Positions 1 through 16,815 of a stretch of DNA of 64,000 bases are shown here, one piece after another. This stretch comes from Nitrospirota bacterium (lineage in GTDB: Bacteria > Nitrospirota > UBA9217), in contig CAWIYV010000001.1 in the NCBI GenBank assembly GCA_963840455.1, forward strand, positions 128,001 to 192,000. The letters are read 5' to 3'. Below the pieces are notes generated by a model, which did no database searches, was not told the origin of the DNA, and saw only the letters and a program-made list of their open reading frames with translations. Numbering within the stretch: the first letter of the stretch is position 1; every line of letters begins with the position of its first letter. A program made the translations under genes and the position numbers.

Positions 1-42
1 GATATTACCGAGCCCCAGAATGGTAATGGTCGGTTCTTTCAT
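1..42 (-). CDS. hybD: Hydrogenase maturation endopeptidase HybD/HyaD family, 5' end only (runs off window)
   Basis: Minus strand from ATG at 42 reads MKEPTITILGLGNI (LGxGN motif of hydrogenase maturation proteases); GGAGGAG RBS at 53-59; directly downstream of the hydrogenase large subunit. Confidence 0.8.
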   Translation of the reverse strand, partial: MKEPTITILGLGNI

Positions 43-130: not shown

Positions 131-1831
131 TTACAGGGCCTTCACCGTGATGATATCTTTCCCTTTCGCATCGACCATGTGAATGGCGCAGGCCAGACAG
201 GGATCGAAGGAATGCACGGTCCGGAGGACCTCCAGAGGCTTTTCCGGGTCCGCCAGCGGCGTGCCGATGAGCGATGCTTCGTACGGGCCGGGTTGATCGC
301 TTCCGTTCCGCGGGGCTGCGTTCCAGGTTGAAGGAACGACGCACTGATAGTTTTTGATCTTCCCGTTGTCAATGACGCTCCAGTGTGACAGGATGCCGCG
401 CGGCGCCTCGTGGAAGCCAACGCCCTTGATCTCGCCGCTGGGGAACTTAGGCGCGTTGAAGGTCTTCACGTCGCCTTTGCCGATGTTGGCGACCAGAGCG
501 TTCCACTGGTTCGTGCACTCATCTAACAGCACCGCGCAGCGCACGGCGCGGGCGCCGATGCGGCCGATGGTCGAATGCAGCGCTGCTGGTCCGACCTTGG
601 TCTTGGCAACTGCACTGATCGTGTTTAGCATGTCGGTGACGTACTTCTTCGTCCCCGCATGACCGGCTGCGTACATGCAGAGCACATTGGCCAGCGGACC
701 GACCTGGGCGGTCTTGCCGTTGAACGTCGGCGCCTTGACCCATGAGTATTTTCCATCATACTGCATGCCCGTGTGGTTCGGGTCCGTAGACTCCTCCCAA
801 GGATGCTTGTTCCAGTCGCCCTTATACCAGGAGTGCTTGACGCTCTCTTTTACGCCGTTCTTGAAGAACTCGTCATTGAAGCTCTTGATGGGCTTAAAGG
901 TGCTGAAATCGGCGTTCTCGATGTATCCGCCCGGAAGAGCAAAGGTCGTTCCCTTCGTGTCCATGGGCATATCAGGAGCCGAAAGATAGTTCGTCACGCC
1001 TTTGCCGTACCCGGTCCAGTCGGCATACAAGGCTGCTACGGCCGCCACATCTACGAGCATGGCGTTCCTCACGAAGCTCTGGACCTCGTCGATAAGTGTC
1101 TTGATGTAGTAGAGCCTCTCCATGTTGAGCGCCGACTGGTTCTCCGGATTGATCGCGTTCGCCACGCCGCCGACCGCCAGGTTCTGGATGTTCGGCGTCT
1201 TGGACCCCAGAATGGACACCACCATGTTGATCCTGCGCTGGTAGTGGAGCGCCTGGAGGTAGTGTGCAGTAGCAAGGAGGTTCACCTCGGGCGGCAGTTT
1301 CATGGCCTTATGGCCCCAGTAGCCGTTCGCGTAAATGCCGAGTTGGCCGCTTTTTACAAAGGTCCCCAGCCGGTCCTGGACTTCCTTCATGTGCTTCGTG
1401 CTGTTCTGGTCCCAGTTCGAAAGGCTCTCACCGAGCTGCGACGCCTTCTTGGGGTCCGCCTTCAGGGCTGAGACGATGTCGACCCAGTCAAGGGCAGCCA
1501 GGTGGTAGAAATGCACAATATGATCATGGACGCCATGGGCTGCCATGATCAGGTTCCGGATATATTGCGCGTTCAGCGGTATTTCGAGCTGCAGGGCGTT
1601 CTCAACCGACCTCACCGAGGCCAGTGCGTGAACAGACGTTCAAACCCCGCAGATCCGTTGGGTAAAGAGCCAGACCTCCCGGGCGTCCCTGCCCTTCACG
1701 ATGTTCTCGATCCCGCGCCACATCTGGCCGGACGACCAGGCCTTGCTGACCTTGCCGTTCTCCACTTCGCATTCGATGCGCAGATGGCCTTCGATCCTGG
1801 TGATTGGATCTATAACGATTCTTTTCGACAT
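131..1831 (-). CDS. hybC: [NiFe]-hydrogenase large subunit (HybC/group 1c-like), 566 aa if the in-frame TGA at codon 64 is read as selenocysteine
   Basis: ORFs 1640..1831 and 131..1615 are in one frame, separated only by TGA at 1642-1640. Joined they read RIEGH...QRICGV(TGA)TSVHALASVRSVE...DPCLACAIH plus a C-terminal extension, colinear with hydrogenase-2 large subunits. Confidence 0.92.
1598..1639 (-). promoter_or_regulatory. Candidate bacterial SECIS element immediately 3' of the in-frame UGA
   Basis: mRNA after UGA reads ACGUCUGUUCACGC-ACUGGCCUC-GGU-GAGGUCGGU-UGAGAAC: 9-bp stem (2 G-U pairs), GGU apical loop starting 24 nt after UGA, possible lower GUUC/GAAC pairing. Confidence 0.75.
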
Positions 1832-1856: not shown

Positions 1857-3038
1857 TTATGCGTGCTCAGCCTTCGGCAGCACGGGGAATGTCTTGACTA
1901 TATACAAATAGGCCATGATCTCGAAGGAAATGATGCCCAGCGTTATCATGGTCTCCCCGAACGAGGGGAAATAGTTCCAGTTGTTCCCGGGATTGAACCC
2001 GACCAGATACGTGTCGAAACGATAGACCGCTCCGGCCAGCACCATCGCAGCTGCCGCCAGAAAGAGCTGCTTGGGCCGAGAGCGGTTCGCTGCCTGCAGG
2101 AGGATGATGAACGAATAGACATACAGGGCGTTCTCGATCCAGAACGCAAGGGCGTACTTGTTGAACTGGAACGCCATCCCGAACGCACCCCGCCAGAGCA
2201 GATCAGCGACCCGCACCAGGAGATAGGCACCAATAAGCCAGGGGATGATCCCCGAGAGCTTCGACAGGAAGGGCATCTCGATCTCGCGCTTGAACCCAAT
2301 GGATGAATAGATGGACTCAAAGACCACCATCGCGTATCCCATGGTGATGGCCGAGATCAGGAAGAGCAGAGGCAGGAATCCCGTCTGCCAGAGCGGATGG
2401 AGCTTTGCCCCGGAGATATACATCAGCGTGCCGAGCGAGGACTGGTGCATGGTCGGCAGGAGTACCCCAACGGCAATGAAGACGAATAACCACTTGTTCA
2501 GCGTCTTATGGATGCCTTCGACCTTCCATCCCTGGACGAACTTCGGCAGCTTGTCCTTGTGTTTGATGATGCCTTCCAGAAAAGCAGGTGTGAATTCGAT
2601 CCAGAGCACGGTGGTATAGGTCATCACGCAGAAGGCGACTTCAAACATGGTCGAGTTGATATTCGCATACCACGGGGTGAAGAGTTTCCAGCCATTCCAG
2701 TACCGTCCGATGTCAACCATGATGGATGCGCCCGCAAGCGTGTAGCCAAATACGCCTGCGAGCAGCGCGGGACGGACAAGCGGATGATACTCACCTTTGT
2801 TCATGACATAGACCAGCAATGCCATGGAATATCCGCCACAGGCTATGGCCGTGCCCACAACCACGTCATAGGCGATCCAGATGCCCCATGGATAACCGTC
2901 GTTCAGGTTCGAGACAGCCCCGATCCCGAAGATGTAGCGGATGCCGATCAGGATGACCGCAACGCCGAACAAGCCGGCAAAGAACAGAAATGGCTTGGTC
3001 AAAACATTTCCGCCTAAGGGTCTGCTTTCTTCCGACAT
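1857..3038 (-). CDS. hybB: Hydrogenase-2 membrane subunit HybB (NrfD/PsrC family)
   Basis: About 10 hydrophobic segments, GYPWGIWIAYDV and LLPTMHQSSLG motifs, position in the operon. Confidence 0.92.
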   Translation of the reverse strand: MSEESRPLGGNVLTKPFLFFAGLFGVAVILIGIRYIFGIGAVSNLNDGYPWGIWIAYDVVVGTAIACGGYSMALLVYVMNKGEYHPLVRPALLAGVFGYTLAGASIMVDIGRYWNGWKLFTPWYANINSTMFEVAFCVMTYTTVLWIEFTPAFLEGIIKHKDKLPKFVQGWKVEGIHKTLNKWLFVFIAVGVLLPTMHQSSLGTLMYISGAKLHPLWQTGFLPLLFLISAITMGYAMVVFESIYSSIGFKREIEMPFLSKLSGIIPWLIGAYLLVRVADLLWRGAFGMAFQFNKYALAFWIENALYVYSFIILLQAANRSRPKQLFLAAAAMVLAGAVYRFDTYLVGFNPGNNWNYFPSFGETMITLGIISFEIMAYLYIVKTFPVLPKAEHA

Positions 3039-3055: not shown

Positions 3056-4009
3056 TTATTTGTGATCCTTCGTGTTCTTATGCACCACGTACAGCAGACC
3101 GCCGAGGAATACGATCGGCGCGATCATGCCTTTGTAGATCGTGTGATTCAGCGTTTCCGACCGCTTCGCATCCGAAGCTTCCGTCAGGCTCGGCATGCCG
3201 AGCTTTTCGAACGGCACACCGGTAAGATAGAGGATCTGCGTGCCGCCGCCATCTTTCTCGCCATAGATCTTCTGGATGTAGGGGGTCACATCCCGCTCGG
3301 TCGTGACCGATCCACCGAGTTGCTCTACCGGATAGTTCTGTCGGCTCCCCGGTTTGTACTGGAGCCGCTTCCTGGCTTCAGCGAGAAGGTCTTCCACCTT
3401 GCCGTATACCGTGGCTCCCGTGGGACAATTCTTGGCGCACGCCGCAAACTCGCCCTTCTTCATCAGGTGATCGCATAGCTGGCATTTGCGGATCTGCGGG
3501 AAGGCCTTTTCAAATTCGAACTTCGGAACATTAAACGGACAGGCAAGTTGGCAGTAACGGCACCCGATGCAATTACCCTTATCGTAGCTGACAACGCCGG
3601 TCTTCGGGTCCTTGATCAGTGCCGATACCGGACATGCTGAAACACACGCAGGGTCCGTGCAGTGCATACACTGCCGCTTGACGTAGGCATGGCCGTCCTT
3701 TTCCCGGTCCTTCGCCACCCCCGTACCGTCTTTATAGAGCTTGATGATATTTAAGGTCTTGGAATCATCGTCTAACGCATTGTCCCAGAGCTGATCGCTC
3801 GAGGAGAAGCTCGGCGGCATTTCATTCGCCTGTTTGCAGGCGGAGACGCAGGCTTTGCAGCCGGTGCAGACCGTCGAATCATAGAGAAAGCCTACCGCAT
3901 CCTTTGCTCGCTCCTTGGGCTCGCGGGCAAGGACCGGATGTGCACTGGACGCCGCCATGAGGCCGCCGGCTGCAGCAACTTTCAGGAAATCTCTTCGTTT
4001 AATTTCCAT
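3056..4009 (-). CDS. hybA: Hydrogenase-2 Fe-S subunit HybA (Tat-exported, 4x[4Fe-4S])
   Basis: RRDFLK Tat motif; CTGCKACVSAC, CMHC..PACVSACP, CIGCRYCQLACP and CQLC..CAKNCP clusters; C-terminal TM helix. Confidence 0.93.
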   Translation of the reverse strand: MEIKRRDFLKVAAAGGLMAASSAHPVLAREPKERAKDAVGFLYDSTVCTGCKACVSACKQANEMPPSFSSSDQLWDNALDDDSKTLNIIKLYKDGTGVAKDREKDGHAYVKRQCMHCTDPACVSACPVSALIKDPKTGVVSYDKGNCIGCRYCQLACPFNVPKFEFEKAFPQIRKCQLCDHLMKKGEFAACAKNCPTGATVYGKVEDLLAEARKRLQYKPGSRQNYPVEQLGGSVTTERDVTPYIQKIYGEKDGGGTQILYLTGVPFEKLGMPSLTEASDAKRSETLNHTIYKGMIAPIVFLGGLLYVVHKNTKDHK

Positions 4010-4029: not shown

Positions 4030-5166
4030 TTATTTTTTCCCTTTGCCTTCATCTTCACCCAGCTTATGAGCAACTTTATTCACTGCTGCGAACGCAGCTC
4101 CAGCGGCTGCCGCTGCGACGACAACACCTCCGATGGTCGCACCCGTGCTCGCACCTTGCCTTTCTGCGATGTGCGGATAGGTGTCTGGTGGGGTCACCAT
4201 ATGCAGGCTGGCCTTGGTGAAGAGCGGCTTATGGAATCCGATGCCCTTCTCAGAGCATCCAAAGCACGGATGACCGCATCCTACCGGCCATGTTCCAGCG
4301 CCAGTATCGCCGAATAGCAGAGAAGGGCAATTGTTGAATGTCTCAGGCCCCTTGCACCCAAGCTTATAGAGGCAATATCCCTTGCGATGGTTGTCATCAC
4401 CGAACTCTGTGGCGAACCGGCCAGCGTCAAAGTGCGGCCTGCGCTCGCAGTTCTCATGAATGAGCCTGCCATAGGCGAACTTCGGCCTGGCCAACTCGTC
4501 GAGCTCCGGCAGTTTCTTGAAAGTGACGAAGTACAGAACGGTCGAAAGGAAATTGTAGGGATTCGGCGGACATCCGGGGATGGAGACCACCGGCGTCTTG
4601 ATGCCTGCGTCGGTGAGTATCTTATGAACCGGTGTGGCACCTGTCGGGTTGGGATCAGCGGACGGTACACCGCCCCAGGACGAGCAGGAACCCATCGCCA
4701 CGATCGCGAAGGCATCCTTGGCCGTGTCTTTAAGGATGTCCAGGGCCGTCCTGCCGGCAATCATGCAATAGATGCCGTTGTCCTTGACCGGTATGGCGCC
4801 ATCCACGACGAGGATGAACTTGCCTTTGTTCTCCTTGATCGAGGTTGCTCGTGCTTCCTCAGCCTGATGACCGGAGGGAGTGCTGAGCGTTTCGTGGTAA
4901 TCGAGGGAGATGAGATCGAGGATAAGATGTTCGAGGGTGGGATGTGTGGCCCGAAGCAGCGATTCTGTACAACCGGTACACTCCTGCGCCGACAGCCAAA
5001 TCACCGGCGGGCGCTTCGCCGCTCCTGCAACGGCCTCTGCGATCTGCTCGCCGGCACCGAGCGGCAGCCCCATGCCTGCGGCCACAATACTGCAATACTT
5101 GATAAACTCCCTGCGTGACACACCAAGCTGCTTGCTGACCGATTCAGTATCTTTGTTCTTCTTCAT
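4030..5166 (-). CDS. hybO: [NiFe]-hydrogenase small subunit (Tat-exported, C-terminal membrane anchor)
   Basis: SRREFIK Tat motif; ECTGCTES, GSCSSWGG, PGCPPNP, HENCERR, CLYKLGCKGP and GHPCFGC motifs. Confidence 0.94.
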   Translation of the reverse strand: MKKNKDTESVSKQLGVSRREFIKYCSIVAAGMGLPLGAGEQIAEAVAGAAKRPPVIWLSAQECTGCTESLLRATHPTLEHLILDLISLDYHETLSTPSGHQAEEARATSIKENKGKFILVVDGAIPVKDNGIYCMIAGRTALDILKDTAKDAFAIVAMGSCSSWGGVPSADPNPTGATPVHKILTDAGIKTPVVSIPGCPPNPYNFLSTVLYFVTFKKLPELDELARPKFAYGRLIHENCERRPHFDAGRFATEFGDDNHRKGYCLYKLGCKGPETFNNCPSLLFGDTGAGTWPVGCGHPCFGCSEKGIGFHKPLFTKASLHMVTPPDTYPHIAERQGASTGATIGGVVVAAAAAGAAFAAVNKVAHKLGEDEGKGKK

Positions 5167-15866: not shown

Positions 15867-16815
15867 CTTTTTTCCTTAACAGATAGAGAAAATACGGCGC
15901 GCCGATCACCGCGGTCACGGTCCCGGACGGAAGTTCCAGGGGCGGCATCAGCGACCTTCCGATCAGGTCCGCAAAGCACAGGAACGCCCCGCCTGCGACC
16001 GCTGAAGCCGGCACGAGGAGCCTGCTGTCGGCTCCGAGCAGGAAGCGCACGATGTGCGGCATCAGGAGCCCGATGAAACCGATGGTCCCTCCCAGAGACA
16101 CTGACGCCGATGTCATGAGCGCCATCGCCGCGAAGAGAATGAGCCGTTCCCGCTGAACGGCGAATCCGAGACTGTAGGCGAATTCGTCGCCCAGGATCAG
16201 TGCGTTCAACGCCTTGGAGCGGAAGAGCGCAATGCCGAGGCCAATGATGATGAAAACGGACGCCGAAGGGATCAGCGTCCAGTCCGCCATGGAGAGGTCG
16301 CCGAACATCCAAAGGACCGCCCGCCGAAGACCCTCGTCGCTCGACAGGGACATGAGCAGCATCAGAACAGCGCTGAACAGGAAGTTCAATCCGATGCCGG
16401 CAAGCAGGAGACGTTCGGGCCAGAGACCGCCGCGCTTCCAGCCGAACGCCCCAACGAGGATGCTGACGAGCGAGGCGCCGATGAACGCCGATACAGGCAC
16501 GCTCGATCCGCCGAAGACATAGAAACCCGCAAGAAGGCCGAGGGCTGCTGCAAGGGACGCGCCGCTGGAGATCCCCAGGATATAAGGGTCAGCCAGCGGG
16601 TTACGCAGGACGCCCTGCAATATGGCGCCGGAAGCGCCCAGGGCCATACCCATCAGCAGCGCGACCGCCACGCGCGGCAGCCGTATGGAGAGCAGGATCT
16701 CGCGCTCCATGTCCGTCATGGCAAGAGGATTGATCGTCCGGGGACCGGCGTACAAGGCCAGGACCAGGATGGCCGCGGCCATGAGCAGAAAGAGAGTGAT
16801 CCTTACTTTATGCAT
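15850..16815 (-). CDS. btuC: Cobalamin ABC transporter permease (BtuC/FecCD family)
   Basis: IRLPR, RNPLADPYILGISSGA and GFIGL..PH motifs. Confidence 0.87.
   Translation of the reverse strand: MHKVRITLFLLMAAAILVLALYAGPRTINPLAMTDMEREILLSIRLPRVAVALLMGMALGASGAILQGVLRNPLADPYILGISSGASLAAALGLLAGFYVFGGSSVPVSAFIGASLVSILVGAFGWKRGGLWPERLLLAGIGLNFLFSAVLMLLMSLSSDEGLRRAVLWMFGDLSMADWTLIPSASVFIIIGLGIALFRSKALNALILGDEFAYSLGFAVQRERLILFAAMALMTSASVSLGGTIGFIGLLMPHIVRFLLGADSRLLVPASAVAGGAFLCFADLIGRSLMPPLELPSGTVTAVIGAPYFLYLLRKKDVLGV

Follow-up and report, generated by a model that had tools for sequence, protein, structure and literature searches.

A probable selenocysteine insertion element within the coding sequence of a hydrogenase-2-type [NiFe] hydrogenase gene of a Nitrospirota bacterium

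A window of 64,000 nucleotides (nt) from a Nitrospirota bacterium (GTDB lineage Bacteria; Nitrospirota; UBA9217), taken from contig CAWIYV010000001.1 of assembly GCA_963840455.1 (positions 128,001 to 192,000), contains hybC, the gene for the large subunit of a [NiFe] hydrogenase, with an in-frame UGA at codon 64. A preliminary description of this DNA had proposed that a hairpin in the coding sequence directly behind the UGA is a selenocysteine insertion sequence (SECIS) and marks recoding rather than a nonsense mutation. We analyzed the hairpin, the genome around it, and related genes. Coordinates are those of the window unless a contig or locus is named. The features at the locus are as follows.

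134..1831, minus strand: hybC, large subunit of a Hyb-type (E. coli hydrogenase-2-like) [NiFe] hydrogenase, 566 codons, UGA as codon 64
131-133, minus strand: TAA stop codon of hybC
1640..1642, minus strand: in-frame UGA, codon 64, where the N-terminal nickel motif RxCGxC has its second Cys
1605..1625, minus strand: upper stem-loop of the putative SECIS, 9 bp (two G-U), GGU triloop, -12.2 kcal/mol for the hairpin alone
1598..1633, minus strand: proposed lower helices (nt 10-13/42-45 and nt 15-16/39-40), which fold in this genome and are not conserved
1860..3038, minus strand: hybB, cytochrome b membrane subunit (NF008133, 526 bits, above cutoff)
3059..4009, minus strand: hybA, Fe-S subunit (NF008134, 439 bits, above cutoff)
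4033..5166, minus strand: hybO, hydrogenase small subunit (TIGR00391, 465 bits, above cutoff; NF007779, 501 bits)

Codon 64 of hybC and the hairpin behind it

Read with UGA as selenocysteine (Sec, U in one-letter code), HybC has the motif RICGVU at residues 59-64 and DPCLAC near its C terminus, and the nickel-ligand and canopy motifs are all retained. Its top NCBIfam match was NF007778 (hydrogenase 2 large subunit) with 884.6 bits, below the cutoff of 969, and it aligned end to end with E. coli HybC (6en9_L) at 795 bits. Since the N-terminal parts align residue for residue, U64 is the counterpart of Cys64 of the E. coli enzyme, whose metal ligands are Cys61, 64, 546, and 549 (PMC5902676; here and below, cited articles stand for the parts of their text that were accessible). 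For Sec in an N-terminal CXXU motif, a bridging role between Ni and Fe is predicted (PMC13582414). The operon has the order hybO-hybA-hybB-hybC, and the three other subunits matched their families above cutoff. HybC thus has the features of the N-terminal CXXU type of Group 1, with a UGA for the second Cys of RxCGxC, the other three ligands kept as Cys, and a Group 1 operon. In the classical NiFeSe hydrogenases (HysA type, C-terminal UxxC), Sec takes the place of the first Cys of DPCxxC; since HybC has Cys there (DPCLAC), it is not a classical NiFeSe hydrogenase. The two classical [NiFeSe] models also scored below cutoff on HybC (NF033181, 468 bits versus 600; NF045518, 344 versus 780). Directly downstream of hybC, the start of a putative hybD-like maturation protease gene (MKEPTITILGLGNI..., positions 1-42, minus strand) leaves the window at its edge.

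For the hairpin, we numbered the U of the UGA as nt 1. Read from 1642 to 1598, the UGA is followed by 14 nt, the 5' arm ACUGGCCUC (1625-1617), the GGU loop (1616-1614), and the 3' arm GAGGUCGGU (1613-1605), which places the stem at nt 18-26/30-38 and the loop at nt 27-29. The preliminary description had given this 9-bp stem with a GGU loop starting at the 24th nt after the UGA, and RNAfold returned exactly that, in both the minimum free energy (MFE) and the centroid structure of a 68-nt stretch (energy, -17.5). When the context was varied between 48 and 360 nt, the stem stayed in the MFE structure, and its pair probabilities were 0.85-1.0. A lower GUUC/GAAC helix (1633-1630 with 1601-1598), suggested at the same time, also forms in this genome. 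The stem was further said to depend on particular synonymous codons; it does need GCC, UCG, GUG, AGG, and UCG, but these are all common codons in this gene.

The archetype of the bacterial SECIS (bSECIS) is the E. coli fdhF element. The consensus model of Zhang and Gladyshev, as summarized in PMC13188914, asks for a loop of 3-9 nt with at least one G in its first two positions (mostly G and then G or U), an upper stem of 4-16 bp, a spacing of 16-37 nt, and an energy of -7.5 kcal/mol or lower. The hybC hairpin passes all four constraints, with a 3-nt loop on 9 bp, the loop sequence GGU, 23 nt from UGA to loop (nt 4-26), and -12.2 kcal/mol. It shares with the consensus element the location within the coding region, immediately 3' of the UGA, and a small loop that opens with G and then G/U, but the loop is the minimal one of 3 nt, on a perfect 9-bp stem without a bulged U or a conserved lower stem.

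As to the Sec machinery, this genome encodes SelB (383.5 bits), an adjacent SelA (606.9 bits), a tRNA-Sec (66.5 bits), and a selD gene with an in-frame TGA of its own. Moreover, five genes for the alpha subunit of formate dehydrogenase (FDH) have a TGA at the Sec position:

Five FDH alpha genes and selD (contig:coordinates), each with one in-frame TGA and a hairpin: C8:21374-24481, C8:28578-31700, C13:12639-15842, C9:237513-239519, C10:288497-290518, C14:252661-253584

The preliminary description had pointed to such elements for comparison. The FDH and selD hairpins use two loop positions, nt 27-29 (GGG) and nt 22-26 (GGUCU). In the SECIS of fdnG1 and fdnG2 (contig C8), nt 18-26 pair with nt 30-38 in a stem of 9 bp that closes a GGG triloop (nt 27-29), which is the exact register of hybC, and the pairs G21-C35, G22-U34, and C23-G33 are identical in the two kinds of hairpin; in the two fdhA genes, the stems measure 7-9 bp and the GGUCU loop is at nt 22-26. 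A 9-bp stem and a GGN triloop were common to 17 unique FdnG SECIS of the family, one of which has a GGU loop. Since the geometry matches, the hybC hairpin looks like what the SelB of this organism already reads, and one SelB would presumably serve both. The likeness ends there, however: only 11 of the 21 bases are identical, the host protein is a different one, and the hairpin went unscored by a model built from fdnG. The hybC hairpin is not a sequence homologue of the fdnG SECIS.

The UGA itself lies inside a 5-bp mini-hairpin, in which UGAAC pairs with GUUCA 4 nt downstream (1629-1642, minus strand). RNAfold predicted this mini-hairpin also in many related genes with two UGAs (see below), in which the Val codon is almost always GUU (0.6 bits). 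A counterpart, UGCAC....GUGCA, is present in several Cys-encoding genes, and the structure may be a chance product of the peptide (U/C)TTVH.

Constraint on the RNA in selenocysteine- and cysteine-type genes

A Hyb-type large subunit was found in 115 of 401 genomes of the phylum (expect value [E], 1e-160 or lower). Wherever the Nitrospirota genes had in-frame TGAs, these were in the N-terminal motif (RxCGxU or RIUGVU), and the C-terminal motif was always DPCxxC. Scanning genome contigs added genes of the CxxU type, with the UGA of hybC, at 6 of 80 loci (Desulfobulbus, Desulfobacca, Desulfobacterales, and Rokubacteria metagenome-assembled genomes [MAGs]). Of 78 loci fetched in a metagenome scan, 68 had the motif, 24 of them as CxxU and 44 as Cys genes. 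The working set comprised 195 Hyb-type genes, from which 13 genes of another hydrogenase group (motif ...CPTSH) had been excluded; 191 sequences were unique over the 63 nt from the Cys/Sec codon, 97 of them Cys type, 45 CxxU, and 49 UxxU. A UGA at this codon is shared by 46 CxxU-type genes (for the most part from Nitrospirota, the others from Desulfobacterota and Rokubacteria MAGs), none of which has a further in-frame stop between the motif and the gene end. The peptide behind the codon, T[TS]VHA..SVR.VENAL, is conserved in the Cys, CxxU, and UxxU types; the Cys genes are therefore a natural control for constraint that acts on the RNA.

Synonymous entropy was calculated in windows of 12 codons along the gene. 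We kept rows of at least 1500 nt that had the N-terminal anchor, namely, 43 CxxU (two genes reaching a contig end were left out), 48 UxxU, and 93 Cys genes. The values were as follows (SD, standard deviation; starts in codons from the Cys/Sec codon).

CxxU, n = 43: lowest windows start at -1, 0, -2, and +1; entropy, 0.52-0.55; gene mean, 0.798 (SD, 0.080)
UxxU, n = 48: lowest windows start at -1, 0, +2, and -2; entropy, 0.40-0.44; gene mean, 0.815 (SD, 0.086)
Cys, n = 93: lowest windows start at +453 to +456 (0.73-0.75); window after the codon, 0.879, rank 194 of 297; gene mean, 0.859 (SD, 0.041)

Only the Sec types, then, have their gene-wide synonymous minimum right after the UGA, whereas the same place is ordinary in the 93 Cys genes. 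The Val codon in the loop is GUG in 43 of 43 CxxU genes but has an entropy of 1.8 bits in the Cys genes. The hairpin follows the same division. We took the best hairpin in nt 4-57 and counted it if its loop began within nt 20-29, with G as the first or second loop base, and its free energy was -7 or lower; such a hairpin was present in 41 of 45 CxxU and 44 of 49 UxxU genes (85 of 94 Sec genes) but in only 8 of 97 Cys genes. Equal conservation in Cys orthologues, which the preliminary description had named as speaking against a SECIS, was thus not what we found. Eight of the 9 Sec-type exceptions keep the same hairpin with a shorter stem, and in the ninth (L065) another hairpin is more stable. 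A variant of the test (at least 6 pairs, a loop of at most 5 nt, and -7.5 or lower) applied to new, nonredundant metagenome sequences gave the hairpin in 13 of 13 CxxU and 6 of 39 Cys genes.

The hairpin of our gene belongs to a class (class A) of 22 distinct sequences, in which the cells of helix 18-26/30-38 are 96.5% paired and G27 and G28 of the loop are invariant (22/22). Three pairs toggle between G-U and A-U or U-A: U20-G36 stands against U-A in 14 versus 8 sequences, and A22-U34 against G-U, again in 14 versus 8. At C23-G33, both sides have changed to U-A in 2 sequences. The lower helices fared less well, with 79.5% pairing for nt 10-13/42-45 and 86.4% for nt 15-16/39-40. U12-A43 is broken in 13 of the 22 sequences without a compensatory change, which rules out the lower GUUC/GAAC helix as a conserved part of the element although it forms in this genome. 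In class C (36 sequences with a CGUGA loop), two pairs have changed on both sides. Other clades place differently paired hairpins on the same peptide, with the loop mostly at the same position (in class B it is 5 nt closer to the UGA):

ACGCACUG-GCUU-CAGUGCGU, loop at nt 22
CAGCUC-CGUGA-GAGCUG
ACCGCCUC-GGU-GAG(A)GCGGU, bulged
CAGCUCG-GUY-CGAGCUG

Since several pairing registers occur on one peptide, selection appears to have been for having a hairpin and not for one sequence. The peptide itself is not free of this constraint either. Counted from the Cys/Sec codon, Leu at +6 goes with Ser/Thr at +11 in 31 of 45 CxxU genes, and Thr at +6 with Ala at +11 in 12 of 45 CxxU and 38 of 49 UxxU genes; the Cys types mostly combine Ile/Leu/Val/Met at +6 with Ala at +11 and have Ser/Thr at +11 in 18 of 97 cases. 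The SECIS thus seems to shape the amino acid sequence, with residues covarying with the RNA pairing in the Sec types.

The genes with two UGAs form a clade with about 53% identity to HybC (L033-L037 and L077-L138; for example, L033:1495-3207:+). They have in-frame UGAs at both N-terminal nickel ligands (RI-U-GV-U), and this UxxU layout was seen in 51 genes among the 401 Nitrospirota genomes, with DPCMAC (in a few, DPCLAC or DPCMSC) at the C terminus. They have one hairpin, after the second UGA, with loop nt 27-28 corresponding to 32-33 nt from the first UGA; therefore, a single SECIS may serve both codons.

Weighing the hairpin as a recoding signal

We put the probability that the hairpin at 1605-1625 (minus strand) is a genuine bacterial SECIS within the hybC coding sequence, and that UGA64 is read through mainly as Sec, at roughly 0.87. 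At a ribosome that has reached UGA64, the 9-bp stem with its GGU loop would be bound by the C-terminal domain of SelB, and SelB, competing with release factor 2, would bring a tRNA with a UCA anticodon to the A site. Codon 64 would then be read mainly as Sec to give the full-length hydrogenase-2-type large subunit, in which selenium would replace the sulfur of the second N-terminal nickel ligand, at the predicted Ni-Fe bridging position.

Several results weigh against this reading. The folding energy of the 68-nt hybC stretch is at the chance level (z score, +0.65), as 149 of 200 dinucleotide shuffles folded equally well or better, and 11.7% of synonymous recodings of the next 16 codons equal hybC in stability. 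The MFE z scores of the groups are weak as well (CxxU, -1.18; UxxU, +0.05; Cys, -0.49). The generic bSECIS criteria are loose: about 90% of Sec genes pass them, but so do 724 of 2000 synonymous recodings of the hybC peptide (36%), and the Cys-type genes, with 38 of 97 (39%), are at this neutral level. The peptide HALASVR is therefore inherently hairpin prone. Covariation in class A is thin, with the one compensatory pair in 2 sequences. A FastTree phylogeny of 185 proteins with the motif columns removed required 7 Sec/Cys changes, 5 of them forced by well-supported branches. Only 5 to 7 independent contrasts exist, too few for significance (median P, 0.125), although the direction agrees: about 4 of them link the hairpin to Sec, and 0 run counter to this. 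A search of positions 1300-1900 against Rfam with E up to 10 gave only chance-level matches to unrelated families (E of 3 or more), and a covariance model from the 17 fdnG SECIS, run over the window with filters off, left the hybC hairpin out of its 14 hits at E up to 10. The Rfam result says little because bacterial SECIS share no sequence, and the fdnG model is uninformative on function because it is too sequence specific (mean column identity, 95%); by both searches, the hairpin and other SECIS are not homologous in sequence.

The best hit of the fdnG model, at 16078-16103 (minus strand; 11.6 bits, E of 0.32), was dismissed as a chance match: it lies in an ordinary open frame without an in-frame TGA, and the peptide there resembles what we take to be an ABC-type permease.

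Some Cys-type hybC genes also have a strong hairpin at the same place, namely, L228 (Morganella morganii), L210 ("Candidatus Accumulibacter"), L098, L168, and L190, and this likewise counts against our reading. An example is GCGCUG-GCAU-CGGUGCGU, and good hairpins with a GCWU loop are found in the Morganella and Accumulibacter genes. These are latent SECIS-like structures, encoded by HALASVR, that could ease a switch from Cys to Sec. The closest Cys relatives (L029 and L270-273) retain a partial CCUC-GGU-GAGG core, which may be a decaying or latent SECIS; SECIS-like remnants in the Cys relatives of Group 4 hydrogenases raise the same point (Takano et al., PMC13582414).

Could the hairpin, then, be a role-less by-product of the conserved, self-complementary peptide HALASVRSV in a G+C-rich gene, so that any read-through depends on something else? 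The energy at the chance level, the loose generic criteria, the strong hairpins of some Cys genes, and the silence of the fdnG-trained model would all fit this view. Energy separates Sec and Cys genes poorly, and we therefore dropped it as a criterion and used loop position, loop identity, and synonymous entropy instead. By these measures, the Sec-type genes stand apart, which speaks against a by-product: the gene-wide synonymous minimum just after the UGA is theirs alone, the loop position and loop G are fixed in 85 of 94 of them versus 8 of 97 Cys genes, the Val codon of the loop never varies, and base pairs are kept through changes. The geometry, moreover, is identical to that of the fdnG SECIS, and a stem of at least 8 bp with a G[GU]N triloop at the allowed spacing arose in only 15 of 2000 synonymous recodings (0.75%). 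In the whole genome, there are 281 hairpins with at least 8 bp and a GGN triloop in 8.06 million positions; 6 of them sit 23 nt after a TGA, and only those of hybC and fdnG1 have a long open frame on both sides. The hybC hairpin is above chance by shape and place, not by energy, and we consider a mere by-product very improbable. Still less can be said for a TGA that arose as a nonsense mutation or assembly error and left hybC a pseudogene. Under genetic code table 11, the gene does fall into two open reading frames (ORFs) of 63 and 494 amino acids, but 46 independent assemblies, and 24 of the 68 metagenome contigs with the motif, have a TGA at this very codon, the frame from motif to stop is open in all of those genes, their proteins are 70-99% identical, and none of the nickel-ligand and canopy motifs has been lost. 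With the bSECIS criteria, the fdnG geometry, and the complete machinery, this conservation bears out the preliminary description's view that the element marks recoding, and the chance of a broken gene is practically negligible. hybC is very probably an intact gene for a selenium-type enzyme, of a kind that is rare but has already been noted.

A more serious alternative leaves the SECIS in place and changes the residue. The genome has a second tRNA (G000:C9:389439-389529; L010:1501-1594) that scored 52.9 bits on the tRNA-Sec model and was called tRNA-SeC with anticodon UCA by ARAGORN. It has U as the discriminator base and an encoded CCA, whereas the canonical selC (G000:C1:311722-311816) has G. 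A UCA tRNA with discriminator U was also present in 5 further family genomes inspected (G001, G005, G010, G016, and G017), and three more genomes had a second, lower-scoring match to the tRNA-Sec model. By the sequence criteria of PMC13582414, the second tRNA is a tRNA-ReC (selC*)-like tRNA, and according to that article, tRNA-ReC can decode a SECIS-linked UGA as Cys, and genomes with it may translate UGA in this way. With this tRNA and its discriminator U, some insertion of Cys is therefore possible, and SelB might even deliver mainly Cys to UGA64, giving an all-Cys enzyme or a selenium-dependent Sec/Cys switch. However, canonical selC, selA, and selD are present, and five FDH genes need Sec. 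The CxxU-type genomes G002, G009, and G011 showed the canonical tRNA only, a weak point in view of their incomplete MAGs, and G016 and G017 have the tRNA-ReC-like tRNA without a Sec-type Hyb gene. No paralogue of cysteinyl-tRNA synthetase was seen beside the tRNA in a Pfam search of 13 crudely chosen ORFs from a 12-kb stretch, for which the ORF calls were poor. We regard Cys as the main product as unlikely; for Sec as the main product at UGA64, the chances are roughly three in four. The hairpin is needed whether Sec or Cys is inserted.

Relation to known selenium hydrogenases and meaning

By every criterion tested, the element is a standard bacterial SECIS, and by its sequence the enzyme is of the rare N-terminal CXXU type, the product of a hydrogenase-2-type, natural bridging-Sec gene. 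In 2011, Baltazar et al. listed N-terminal CXXU for one sequence of Group 3 and two of Group 1, as cited in PMC13582414 and PMC8020662. Those Group 1 sequences share with HybC the Sec at the second Cys of the N-terminal CXXC, the predicted Ni-Fe bridge, and the Cys retained at the C terminus, but only two are cited there, in contrast to 46 of the 195 Hyb-type genes analyzed here. Group 4 [NiFeSe] hydrogenases with N-terminal CXXU, UXXC, or UXXU were described by Takano et al. in 2026, in a survey that excluded Groups 1-3 and called UXXU new for Group 4 (PMC13582414). There, too, Sec is found in the N-terminal motif only, the loop G occupies position 1 or 2 in all Sec forms and is far rarer in Cys forms, SECIS-like remnants occur in Cys relatives, and an association with tRNA-ReC is discussed. 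The Group 4 enzymes are energy converting and cytoplasmic, however, whereas HybOABC is of the periplasmic uptake type. In the literature searched, we found no description of UxxU hydrogenases of the Hyb type or Group 1, nor of CxxU genes from Nitrospirota.

The position of U64 is familiar from engineered enzymes. In E. coli hydrogenase-2 (PDB 6EN9/6EHQ), which belongs to the same family and has Cys64 where HybC has U64, Cys61, 64, 546, and 549 were each replaced by Sec (Evans et al. 2024, PMC11212049), and in hydrogenase-1, the variant C79U had 13% of the native H2 oxidation activity, the highest of four variants (Evans et al. 2021, PMC8020662). These variants used UAG and EF-Tu-based insertion without a SECIS, whereas hybC has UGA and a SECIS.

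A wider proposal would join three ideas. Codon 64 would be a selenium-tuned Sec/Cys switch, with one SECIS and two UCA tRNAs deliverable by SelB (tRNA-Sec and the tRNA-ReC-like tRNA); the SECIS would be convergent, with at least four nonhomologous registers on one peptide and covarying residues at +6 and +11 (Leu with Ser/Thr or Thr with Ala); and uptake hydrogenases with bridging Sec or UxxU would be a widespread, unstudied class in Nitrospirota. Taken as a whole, we offer this as tentative, and doubtful in its full extent.

For a specialist, the SECIS in hybC is in itself unsurprising. What is of note is the wider pattern, namely, widespread CxxU and UxxU uptake hydrogenases, convergent solutions for the SECIS, and a second UCA tRNA. 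The gene illustrates how a SECIS constrains synonymous sites, and even the choice of amino acids, within a coding sequence. Read in this way, hybC would be a working selenoprotein gene and not two fragments, which corrects the annotation of hybC and of dozens of its relatives. Together they would be natural cases of a hydrogenase-2-type enzyme with selenium at the ligand that bridges the metals, a position for which, as far as the cited articles describe it, engineered variants from E. coli have been the only object of study to date (PMC11212049, PMC8020662).

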